NCBI GenBank assembly: GCA_016926735.1
Contig: JAFGOA010000198.1
Location: 1-43,411 of the forward strand
Reading direction: 5' to 3'
From: Promethearchaeota archaeon
GTDB lineage: Archaea; Asgardarchaeota; Lokiarchaeia; Sigyniarchaeales; SOKP01
Length of the DNA stretch: 43,411 nucleotides
Part shown: positions 10,493 through 37,702 of the stretch, piece by piece
Layout of the letters: each line of letters starts with the position of its first letter
Numbering within the stretch: position 1 is the first letter of the stretch
Program-made: the position numbers and the translations under genes
Notes under the pieces: generated by a model
The model's input: the letters and a program-made list of their open reading frames with translations, nothing else
Told to the model about the DNA's origin: nothing
Databases searched by the model: none

Positions 10493-11659
10493 TTATAATT
10501 CTTGTGTAAAATCTTCTATTCTATTCATAGCTTCTTCTAATAGACTGATATCAGTTGCATATGAAATCCTCAGTGTATTATTTGAGAAACTCCCAAAAAC
10601 ATCTCCCGGAACTATTGCTACTCCTTTTTCCTTAATAATTCTTTCAGAAAATTCTTGACCTGTTATTTGAAATTCTTCAACAGATGGCATAATATAAAAA
10701 GCTCCCCTTGGTTTCACAACACCAAATCCCATTTTTTTTAACCTTTTATATGAAAAATCTCTTCTTTCTTTAAAATTATGAATTATATCTTTGAAGAAAT
10801 CTTTATTCATCTTTAATCCTTCTATAAATCCAAATTGTGCAGCATGATTTGTCCCTGCAACTGTATATTGATGATATTTTTCCATAAGATCTATAATTTT
10901 TTCATTTGCAACCACATATCCTAAACGAAATCCAGTTGCAGAATATAATTTTGACATTGCATTTATTGTAATCGTTCTTTCCAACAAATCTTTAAAAGAC
11001 GCTGGACTAATATGTTCCGCTTCATCATAGATATAATTTTCATAAACTTCATCTGAAATAAGATAAAGGTCAAATTCCAAAACAATATCTATCAAATTTT
11101 TTATTTCTTTTGAAGTAAAGACATAACCTGTGGGATTATTAGGAGAATTAATGAGTATTGCTTTAGTTTTTTTCGAAATTATTTTTCTCAAATTTTCAAA
11201 ATCTGGAGAAAAATCTTGCTTTCTTTTAATTTCTTTTACAGTCACACCAAAAAAGTATCCTAAATAAAAATAAGAAATAAAATTAGGAGAAAATAAAATT
11301 AATTCATCACCTATATTAAAAATTGAAGCAAATGTTAAGGTTAATGCTTGACTTCCACCATTTGAAATTATTATATTTTTATTCCAATCTACTTCAATAT
11401 TATTATCTCTTTTAACTTTTTCCTCCAATAACTGCAATAGTTCTGGATTCCCTCTTGTTGGAGCATATTGAGTGATATTTTTTTCTAAGGCTCTTATATT
11501 TCCTTGAATTATTGGATATGGGGTTTTAAAATCGGGTTGTCCTATACCTAGACTTATTATATCAGAACGACCAGAAGCAAGATTAAAAAGTTCTCTAATT
11601 TTTGATTTAGGAGTTTTATTTGCTAAGATATATGATAATTCTTTCATAACTATTTTCAC
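10493..11659 (-). CDS. PLP-dependent class I/II aminotransferase (aspartate aminotransferase-like)
   Basis: GQPDF, NSPNNPTG, SDEVY, SKLYSATGFRLGY, GAFY, LRISYA. Confidence 0.93.
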   Translation of the reverse strand: MKIVMKELSYILANKTPKSKIRELFNLASGRSDIISLGIGQPDFKTPYPIIQGNIRALEKNITQYAPTRGNPELLQLLEEKVKRDNNIEVDWNKNIIISNGGSQALTLTFASIFNIGDELILFSPNFISYFYLGYFFGVTVKEIKRKQDFSPDFENLRKIISKKTKAILINSPNNPTGYVFTSKEIKNLIDIVLEFDLYLISDEVYENYIYDEAEHISPASFKDLLERTITINAMSKLYSATGFRLGYVVANEKIIDLMEKYHQYTVAGTNHAAQFGFIEGLKMNKDFFKDIIHNFKERRDFSYKRLKKMGFGVVKPRGAFYIMPSVEEFQITGQEFSERIIKEKGVAIVPGDVFGSFSNNTLRISYATDISLLEEAMNRIEDFTQEL

Positions 11660-33777: not shown

Positions 33778-35055
33778 TTATTTTTTCCATTTTTTCAATG
33801 CTGCTTTAAGCTCTGAATTAGTTTTTGCTCTCTCTTCTAAAGTAAAACCATCTATTATTGCATTTACAGCTTGTCTAATTGCTGAAGCACCTGCTAGAGT
33901 TCCATTAGGATGACCATGACAACCCCCTCCAAATTGATATACCATATCAATCCCTAATAAATCAATTAACTTTGGAATATGTAATGGACTTAAACCTCCT
34001 GAAGCTACTGGTAGCGTTGGTTTTATATGATCCCATTCTTGAGAGAGCATAGTTAAATTATTATCCTCAATTGAATTTTTTGTTAGCATTTCATTAATTT
34101 CTAATACTTCTTGTTTATCTCCTTCCATCTTTCCAACTATTGTTCCTGTATGTAATTGATCCATTCCAATTAGACGCATTAATTTCGCTATTGATAACAT
34201 TGTCATTCCATGTTTTTTATTTCTAGTTAGAGCAGCATGCATTGCTCTATGAGCATGAATTACAATATTTTTATTATCTAAATACGTCCTTAATTCTTGT
34301 AAAGCGGAGTAACCTACCGTGATTATATCTACCATAATATATTCTCCACCATAATCTATAACAAAATTAGCTCTTTTTTTCATTAATTCTATTGGTGCCG
34401 TTATATTAGGCATATATATTTTTTTTTCTCCAGTTTTTTCTTCAATTTTATTTCTTACCTTAAAAGTTTCCTCAATTCTTTTTTTAAACTTATTAAAGAC
34501 CATGCTTGTTAAATTTTCATCATCTTTTACAATATCTAATCCACCTAACCATGCTTCTCCACAAACATTAGCATGTTCGATTTCATTTAACCCCACTTTT
34601 GGTTTAACAATTGTACCTAATAATGGTCTTTTTCTAACCTTAGTAAGCTGTCTTATACCCTCTGTACCAAATTTAGGTCCCTTATACATATCTATAAAAT
34701 CCTTTGGGAAGGTTATATCTAATAATCTTAAGTTATCCAATGCTTTCATACCATAAATATTTCCAGCAATGGCGCTAAGAATTTGTGATATATTATTTAA
34801 TTCAAATAAATCTTTATTATAAGCAATCTTAGTAATTCCATTAGGCTCATCAATATAGAAAATTGAAGGTTTCAATCTATTAGCAATTTCTGCAGACATT
34901 GTAACAATATCTGTCCAAGTACCGATTGAACTTTCTTTAGCTATTTCTGTACAAGCATTTTGAAAATCTTTACAATCTTCTGATTTTTCTACATAATACA
35001 TAACAATAAGGTCATTATCATCAGGTATATAGTCCAAATCAATATAATCTACCAT
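33778..35055 (-). CDS. rbcL: Form III RuBisCO large subunit
   Basis: ESSIGTWT, GTIVKPKVG, catalytic KDDE, HAHRAMH, GKMEG, SGG, QFGGG. Confidence 0.95.
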   Translation of the reverse strand: MVDYIDLDYIPDDNDLIVMYYVEKSEDCKDFQNACTEIAKESSIGTWTDIVTMSAEIANRLKPSIFYIDEPNGITKIAYNKDLFELNNISQILSAIAGNIYGMKALDNLRLLDITFPKDFIDMYKGPKFGTEGIRQLTKVRKRPLLGTIVKPKVGLNEIEHANVCGEAWLGGLDIVKDDENLTSMVFNKFKKRIEETFKVRNKIEEKTGEKKIYMPNITAPIELMKKRANFVIDYGGEYIMVDIITVGYSALQELRTYLDNKNIVIHAHRAMHAALTRNKKHGMTMLSIAKLMRLIGMDQLHTGTIVGKMEGDKQEVLEINEMLTKNSIEDNNLTMLSQEWDHIKPTLPVASGGLSPLHIPKLIDLLGIDMVYQFGGGCHGHPNGTLAGASAIRQAVNAIIDGFTLEERAKTNSELKAALKKWKK

Positions 35056-36530: not shown

Positions 36531-36580
36531 GTAGGAAGTTTTTTAGGAAAAAAGAAAATAATATTTATTGGTGATTAAAA

Positions 36581-36961
36581 ATAGAATTTTGTGATGAGTG
36601 TGGAGGACTTATGATTCCCTCAAAAGAAAAAGGAAAAAAAATATTTAAATGTAAATGCGGTGCTTCAAAAATATTTACTGAAAGTAGATCTAATGCATAT
36701 AAGATTCATACTAAAATAAAACACTCCTATAGAGAAGAAATATCAAATACAAAAGATATAATAAAGTGGAAAGATGAGAATCTAAAAAGCTCAATTAAAG
36801 ATTTTAAATGTAGAAATTGTGGATATGATAAAGCTCAGTTAGAGACACGTCAAACAAGAAGCGCAGATGAAGGTATGACAATTTAAGATATTTAATTTTA
36901 AATCATAAGACATTTTATCATCTGCCTAAAATGTGGAAAAATGAGAAAGATCGGTAGTTAA
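36581..36961 (+). CDS. tfs: Transcription factor S / RpoM family, join(36581..36879,36910..36961), 116 aa after splicing, ATA start
   Basis: The spliced product reads (M)EFCDECGGLMIP..CKCG..CRNCG..QTRSADEGMT|HFIICLKCGKMRKIGS, giving both zinc ribbons and the acidic DE hairpin. Confidence 0.9.
36880..36909 (+). other. Candidate 30-nt BHB mRNA intron in tfs
   Basis: Central helix TATG/CATA, bulges ACA and AGA, 9-bp inner stem, outer exon-exon stem GCAGATGA/TCATCTGC; three in-frame TAA codons inside. Confidence 0.85.
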
Positions 36962-37118
36962 ATTCACAATACATTATTAATTGAGAATATAAATGATTTT
37001 TTTCTTCGAATTAGGTAATATAGTAGAAATATAACCTTCAAATTATTTATAAAAATCTAGTAATTTCTACAAAAATCACCAATTTCTATTCTAATTATTA
37101 ATCTTTTTTTTTTTCAAA

Positions 37119-37226
37119 AGGACCAGCCCTAAGGTTATCAGGCTGTTCGCTCATCACTGAGTTCAAAACATACATCATCTATCATACATAGAGTACTTTC
37201 TCCGAAGTTTTGAAAGAAGTTATCCC
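37119..37226 (-). ncRNA. Candidate structured ncRNA, likely a C/D-box guide sRNA
   Basis: Minus strand reads TTGA-actca-GTGATGA-GCGAACAGC-CTGA; the guide is complementary to the 23S A-loop GCUGUUCGC; stems TTCAAAAC/GTTTTGAA and CAGCCT/GGGCTG. Confidence 0.55.
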
Positions 37227-37531
37227 ACAATACTTATAAAAATAATAAATGTTATAGTATTCTAAGGAGGGACTATTCTTTTTCAAACAAGGCTCAAAAT
37301 CCTTGACTTATGAGAATACCCACATAGAATTATTTGGAAAAGATTCCAGACTTCTATTATCCTTCTAAGTTTACACACACCTATTTTGATATGAATAAAT
37401 GAATAAGTTATGTGATCGTGAGTATTAATGAGGAGCGAAATTGTAAGAGGAATTGTTGACAGTATCAATAGTTGAGAAGTTTTATTTTAAGATATTTAAC
37501 TCCAATGATTTTATTTTCGATTCTTGTTTTT

Positions 37532-37616
37532 TCATCTCCCTCCTTATTTTATAATGTAAGATATAAATTACTATCATTTTAAGCGAGATCGATATTTAAA
37601 ATAAGGAGGGAGATGA
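37532..37616. repeat. Perfect 20-bp inverted repeat with a 45-bp spacer (MITE-like element or hairpin)
   Basis: TCATCTCCCTCCTTATTTTA (37532-37551) and TAAAATAAGGAGGGAGATGA (37597-37616). Confidence 0.8.
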
Positions 37617-37702
37617 TTTTTTTGATTTTTATATAATTTTAATAAAGAGTTGAAATAATAATTTTCATTTCATATAATTATTATAATAATAATATAATAC
37701 TA

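Follow-up and report, generated by a model that had tools for sequence, protein, structure and literature searches.

An intron of the tRNA type, with bulge-helix-bulge (BHB) boundaries, is known from the cbf5 pre-mRNA of Desulfurococcales and Sulfolobales (Watanabe 2002; Yoshinari 2006; Yokobori 2009, PMC2738675). Only cbf5 and a Haloferax 5′ UTR have been listed as BHB cases in mRNA (PMC7714728), and in the literature searched, cbf5 is the only archaeal coding sequence for which a spliced BHB intron is confirmed. For Asgard archaea, tRNA introns with BHB boundaries and repeated gains have been described, with no general arrival route found (bioRxiv 10.64898/2026.10.13.758758), and EndA is a two-subunit (alpha-beta)2 enzyme with an L1 loop that widens its substrate range (PMC5829648). 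For coding sequences of Asgard archaea, the literature searched, from which subscription journals were mostly missing, yielded no description of BHB introns.

The window analysed here is a stretch of 43,411 nt of Promethearchaeota archaeon (GenBank assembly GCA_016926735.1, contig JAFGOA010000198.1). It is contig C18 of a 3.88-Mb genome of 26% G+C, which we label G000; other G and L labels stand for related genomes and loci, and C labels for contigs. A TFS-like gene in the window is split by a 30-nt insert, which is very probably a spliced mRNA intron of the tRNA (BHB) type. Like the cbf5 intron, it is short and BHB-bounded, lies in a coding sequence, would be cut between bases 2 and 3 of each bulge by a two-subunit EndA, and is precisely present or absent between lineages. 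Unlike cbf5, which is a single case and was read as one gain with few losses, it belongs to a TFS-like gene of the phylum Promethearchaeota, is one of several inserts in its genome, and is scattered over the tree and, in four carriers, linked to endonuclease genes or their remnants. Splicing of cbf5 was shown by cDNA, whereas the TFS-like intron is known here from sequence comparison. Haloferax HVO_1309 (Schwarz 2020, PMC7714728) is likewise an mRNA substrate of the splicing endonuclease, but its intron lies in the 5′ UTR and leaves the reading frame uninterrupted. With the Asgard tRNA introns of the above preprint, the TFS-like intron shares BHB boundaries, repeated gains and the enzyme background, and splicing in Asgard cells is presumed for both; that work covers tRNA genes only, with mRNA unmentioned, while the present locus points to a route for an mRNA intron. 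The features of the locus are as follows.

36570–36575, plus strand: Shine-Dalgarno-like GGTGAT preceding the probable start; the layout matches that of congeners and L231
36581–36879, plus strand: exon 1 of the TFS-like paralogue, with the N-terminal zinc ribbon, the first CxxC of the C-terminal ribbon and the acidic D-E pair; ends within the Thr100 codon (phase 2)
36863–36870, plus strand: 5′ arm of the exon-exon stem, pairing with 36918–36925 (8 of 8)
36874–36880, plus strand: 5′ side of the central helix with the 5′ bulge; cleavage predicted at 36879/36880
36880–36909, plus strand: predicted BHB intron of 30 nt, comprising a 9-bp AU-rich stem, a 5-nt loop and the 3′ helix strand
36904–36910, plus strand: 3′ side of the central helix with the 3′ bulge; cleavage predicted at 36909/36910
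36910–36961, plus strand: exon 2, with the last base of Thr100, 16 codons including the second CxxC of the C-terminal ribbon, and the stop (36959–61)
36918–36925, plus strand: 3′ arm of the exon-exon stem, pairing with 36863–36870

The central helix of 4 bp (36874–77/36904–07) is perfect in the window, and the 3-nt bulges (36878–80 and 36908–10) lie on opposite strands. The inner stem (36881–89/36895–903) has 9 bp and a 5-nt loop, and an extra pair is formed by G36873 and C36911. A sequence-only reading of this DNA had proposed these elements, together with the arms, and all of its coordinates were found to be exact. It had also stated that cleavage between bulge bases 2 and 3 (AC|A and AG|A) restores the family spacing; excision by this rule indeed yields DEGMT-HFIICLKC, the sequence of the intron-less orthologues. 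Deletion of 36881–36910 gives the identical product, the junction in the window being ambiguous by one base. In G009, with bulges ACT and AAG, it is unambiguous. Left in place, the insert holds three in-frame TAA codons, the first at 36884–86.

When the insert was shuffled 10^6 times, 0.085% of the shuffles formed the central helix together with 8 or 9 of the 9 inner pairs; the folding z was −2.4. The drawn BHB has an energy of −11.0 kcal/mol, and the fold of lowest predicted energy (−13.7) lies 2.7 kcal/mol below it. With more flanking sequence included, the pair probability was about 0.5 for the central helix and 0.17 for G36873–C36911. A genome-wide scan for the motif plus an ORF gave 49 matches versus 48 in the antisense control, so the BHB shape alone proves nothing, and with the drawn structure also lying above the minimum, the decision rests on comparison with relatives. 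An Rfam search of the window gave no match, and viral contigs searched for the pattern of the intron gave none either. That the intron was copied from one in a tRNA gene is unsupported, since no near copy of the intron was found elsewhere in the G000 genome, where the sole significant match of a covariance model was the TFS-like locus itself.

The TFS-like gene was present in 122 of 135 genomes of the family. Fourteen of the 122, under six genus labels, had an insert with stop codons at the same site, and about 106 read straight through; for G117 and G129 the contigs stop inside the gene, and these were placed in neither count. About 87% of the family genomes thus lack the intron. Thirteen carriers have 30 nt and one (G001) has 31 nt, which shifts the frame. 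The position was identical in all 14 (phase 2 of a Thr codon), and excision by the EndA rule gave the intron-less protein in every case, the 31-nt version included. Where compared, the 14 introns were 70–93% alike. A protein search for the spliced form yielded no RNA-derived sequence; the one full-length relative that it gave, of 106 aa, is encoded on a DNA metagenome contig, hence it is an intron-less allele and not RNA evidence.

Over the 14 sequences, 95% of the cells of the structure were paired, compared with 28–49% in slid controls, and four pairs showed changes on both sides. None of 500 shuffles matched the observed number of paired cells and none of 500 the covariation score; the carriers are related, and these counts are not probabilities. 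The inner stem was 99.2% paired over the 14 genomes, with two-sided changes at three pairs. The first pair of the central helix, formed by an exon base (third position of a Gly codon) and an intron base, had also changed on both sides (U-A and A-U). All four pairs of this helix were present in nine carriers and three of four in the other five, in which the same Gly-codon base can instead pair with the last bulge base. Such mismatches would require an enzyme of relaxed specificity. The exon stem 36863–70/36918–25 was perfect in 8/8 carriers of a first set versus 7/54 intron-less genes. A second register, adjoining the BHB, was intact in all 14 carriers; in one comparison it was perfect in 13/13 carriers versus 26/60 intron-less genes. 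Both outcomes for which an orthologue alignment had been proposed, intron-less alleles and compensatory stem changes, were therefore seen.

The dN/dS among carriers was 0.05–0.18. Between G000 and G001, exon 2 showed seven synonymous changes and one non-synonymous change, and it is conserved despite near-saturated synonymous divergence. Low dN/dS and the retention of exon 2 behind the frameshifting G001 insert argue that exon 2 is translated in the spliced frame. Sequence comparison establishes that the insert exists, how it folds, where exactly it begins and ends, and that both exons are under selection.

Exon 1 matched PF02150 and positions 1–27 of the 39 of PF01096. After intron removal, the protein has N- and C-terminal zinc ribbons and an acidic D-E pair, as in archaeal TFS/TFS1 (PMC7289017) and the RPA12/RPB9/RPC11 family. 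The sequence-only reading had called the host TFS; the two ribbons and the D-E pair agree with this, but the alignments identify the gene as a second, TFS/RPA12-like paralogue and not as canonical TFS, which in the congeners is a different gene. That gene ends in the usual Trp motif and is 36–39% identical to the TFS-like family, which is without this C-terminal Trp. Against TIGR01384 the intron-less orthologue scored 53.5 bits (cut-off 64.75), and a 96-aa part of the congeners' Trp-bearing paralogue was also below the cut-off. Canonical TFS was absent from the G000 assembly, in which the TFS-like gene is the only one with a TFIIS ribbon; probably it is unassembled there. An argument that the gene must be essential as the only TFS gene was dropped, as the congeners possess the canonical paralogue. 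Besides the family itself, one neighbouring family was found to have the TFS-like paralogue. In G000, a short ORF of 44 aa (C35, about 11030–11165) encodes a TFS-like N-terminal ribbon and nothing more; it is truncated in G003 too.

The TFS-like gene is flanked by a citG homologue and a convergent DUF167 gene, an order conserved throughout the family. It may be noted that a RuBisCO large-subunit gene (window 33778–35055, minus strand) is divergent from the citG-tfs unit, and that this order too is kept in relatives. A non-coding element of about 600 nt (window about 37030–37640) has intergenic copies of 77–91% identity on C177, C210, C52 and C4 and many partial copies; no transposase is adjacent to them and Rfam gave no match. 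The element may be MITE-like or an RNA gene.

Translation probably starts at ATA 36581, which aligned with the ATG of orthologues. An ATA start also occurs in two congeners and in G006 and L231, the last two being intron-less alleles; G001 has TTG. With this start, the spliced product has 116 aa. In public annotations, the carriers are entered as truncated proteins of 91–101 aa, one of them as hypothetical, and Asgard gene inventories are affected for this reason. In a model of an intron-less orthologue (moderate, pLDDT 69.6), exon 2 formed two strands, one closing the acidic hairpin and the other being the last of the protein. Because exon 2 gives these strands in the model, the unspliced 101-aa product should be without a folded C-terminal ribbon.

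We propose that the pre-mRNA of the TFS-like paralogue would fold into the BHB, that the two-subunit EndA would cut it after the second base of each bulge, and that RtcB would join the exons into the message for the 116-aa protein, in which both zinc ribbons are complete. Translation of unspliced mRNA would end in the 101-aa product, which would lack the returning strand of the acidic hairpin and two of the four zinc ligands. Very probably, then, this mRNA must be cut and rejoined to give the full protein. The locus offers a small testable substrate of 63 nt, with carriers and non-carriers among close relatives.

As for the machinery, the genome has two EndA genes above the TIGR00324 cut-off (contigs C33 and C100). 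One of these aligned over its full length with solved crenarchaeal (Aeropyrum-type) catalytic subunits, its loop region aligning with 3p1z/3ajv; the catalytic His is retained in G000, the position being Ala in entry 3ajv. A search for rtcB in the G000 assembly found none. Of 81 genomes searched, 74 had the gene, the three congeners among them, and because the congener contig that bears rtcB overlaps the end of G000 contig C232, its absence is probably due to a contig gap in the assembly. Separately, rtcB itself was found to be split by a 29-nt BHB-shaped insert in its GGVGY-DINCG motif at L090, L091, L092 and L093 (G015, G035, G031 and G018). On one G000 contig, ARAGORN reported a cluster of 21 tRNA genes, most of them intron-less, that spans about 6.5 kb and may represent a mobile element or contamination.

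The history of the intron was examined on two trees. On the independent RpoB tree, five changes are needed, of which at least four are forced by well-supported branches. The citG+tfs tree (73 sequences, G005 left out) requires 10 gains or 21 losses. For the six carriers grouping with genus g11, comparison with the nearest relatives that lack the intron gave base differences of 28–30% in codons 0 to +9 and of 10–15% upstream. The non-sister genomes G097 and G104 are identical from codon 0 to +13 and differ in 7 of 14 upstream codons. By these alignments, the carriers show a 3′ co-conversion tract. No co-conversion beyond paired positions was seen among the deep carriers (g1, g3, g7 and g12), and the shared 3′ codons could stem in part from selection for exon pairing.

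Extra DNA 3′ of the stop is frequent in carriers, and in four of them related LAGLIDADG genes lie 3′ of the locus, intact in G009 and G083 and as remnants in G097 and G104. In G009, a two-motif LAGLIDADG protein of 454 aa is followed by a complete second exon 2 that starts within the His codon. The gene of G083 lies at the same place and is 48% identical to it. In G104, the remnant is on a contig other than that of the intron, and behind it come an exon 2 in decay and the DUF167 gene. A displaced old exon 2 is thus seen in two carriers, intact in G009 and decayed in G104. The closest family matches to the G009 endonuclease (48–50% identity) are all in carriers, and others reach at most 39%. 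The putative endonucleases are weak in Pfam, with 22.3 and 26.2 bits at a cut-off of 22.5. G083 has one carrier copy and one intron-less copy; the former falls with genus g11, and its contig was probably mis-binned.

The linked LAGLIDADG genes, the displaced exon 2 and the 3′ co-conversion tract make the intron appear mobile, and it probably spreads between lineages by homing. We suggest that the mobile cassette would consist of the intron, a replacement exon 2 and a free-standing LAGLIDADG endonuclease gene; that it would land at the intron site and push the resident exon 2 downstream; and that the endonuclease would later decay, the bare intron then passing on vertically, as in the genus of the window. 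Collaborative and intronless homing are known for free-standing endonucleases of phages (PMC2988022), and in fungal mitochondria free LAGLIDADG genes occur with partial duplication of the neighbouring gene (PMC7487136). The cassette resembles these systems in having the endonuclease outside the intron, a co-converted flanking exon and a duplicated gene end as a pseudo-fragment. The phage and fungal introns are, however, self-splicing group I introns or absent, whereas here the intron is a predicted protein-spliced BHB of 30 nt on a cellular archaeal chromosome. In the literature searched, we found no paper reporting an endonuclease-linked intron cassette at Asgard genes. The two intact endonuclease genes, with their predicted target, bear on how Asgard BHB introns arrive, which the 2026 preprint left open. 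At the window locus itself, the 740-nt spacer holds no endonuclease gene or remnant and no displaced exon, and the intron is present in each of the genus's four species; the copy in the window is therefore likely to be a settled resident. Elsewhere in G000, ORFs related to the G009 endonuclease were found on C50 (40709–41857), directly behind the aldolase intron, and on C95 (24559–25815), behind a gene for an SNF2-like helicase.

Other explanations were weighed against a spliced intron. The genome is metagenome-assembled, which might suggest an artefact of assembly or sequencing, but diverged versions of the insert occur at this site in 14 independently assembled genomes and in metagenome contigs; an artefact is next to impossible, and this rules out the assembly error that the sequence-only reading had named as a possible refutation. 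Translational recoding, in which the ribosome hops the hairpin or reads through the stops on uncut RNA, is very improbable. A stop two codons in and a stable hairpin are indeed like bypass signals (such as that of T4 gene 60). Read-through, however, must pass one to three stops, adds 10 residues inside the ribbon and cannot repair the 31-nt insert of G001, while for hopping the take-off and landing codons mismatch (ACA versus AGA, AAA, AAG or AAT), and the two-sided changes keep an exon-insert pairing that bypassing does not need. Even less credit can be given to a pseudogene, that is, to an insertion that killed a dispensable second TFS paralogue. The three stops and the non-standard ATA start would fit it, and the separate canonical TFS of the congeners means that the gene may be dispensable. 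Against this stand the dN/dS values and the conservation of exon 2 given above, the lack of other lesions in the 14 carriers and the presence of ATA in the intron-less alleles as well; purifying selection on exon 2 bears out the earlier reading.

Two further alternatives accept splicing and differ in role or history. Unspliced mRNA might serve as a regulatory switch, giving a truncated factor (acidic pair, half ribbon) that ties transcription fidelity to EndA activity. The intron does lie three codons past the D-E pair, with an early stop in every carrier. On the other hand, most of the family manages without the intron, AU-rich inserts are expected to contain stops, and similar inserts in unrelated genes fit a parasite that targets conserved motifs, which makes a switch quite improbable. 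An old, immobile intron, with one basal gain, many precise losses and the endonucleases as intergenic passengers, would change the history only. It agrees with the likeness of the 14 introns, with the precise intron loss reported for cbf5 (PMC2738675), and with the intron-less L231 allele, which bears the ATA start typical of the window's genus. It needs about 21 losses versus 10 gains, however, and leaves unexplained the displaced copies of exon 2, the 3′-only co-conversion tract and the confinement of the closest endonuclease relatives to carriers; we regard it as unlikely.

Homing of a spliced intron remains our preferred reading, and it can be set beside other genes of the same genome. We are inclined to think that in Loki-type Asgard archaea the tRNA-splicing enzymes also process, as a matter of routine, the mRNAs of core genes (the TFS paralogue, RpoB, translation factors). 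The 30-nt introns of these genes would arrive by homing cassettes, in which a free-standing endonuclease brings the intron together with a replacement 3′ exon and afterwards decays. A genome-wide count of introns is withheld because the scan did not beat its antisense control, and inserts are named only where orthologues, Pfam or a well-known motif support them.

The sole rpoB found in G000 has a 32-nt frameshifting BHB insert near the gene start (C69, 28503–28534, minus strand), at a site where relatives show an uninterrupted PDIPG. This insert occurs in three species of the genus (G000 and two congeners; loci L118, L123 and L131) and is absent in the other genera examined; in one congener, stem bases have changed yet are still paired. 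As rpoB is interrupted, the organism would have to possess a general means of removing such inserts. In nadE, the halves on the two sides of the insert matched Pfam positions 2–143 and 144–242. Inserts of 29–32 nt also split the G1 motif of EF-2, a ThiF-family gene, a MoxR-type ATPase, iorB, an aldolase and aIF2-gamma. The last of these lies in the window (42938–42968, minus strand); it has 29 nt and a relaxed BHB with three of four helix pairs, and splits the GHVDHG-KTT P-loop, a motif that is restored when the insert is removed.
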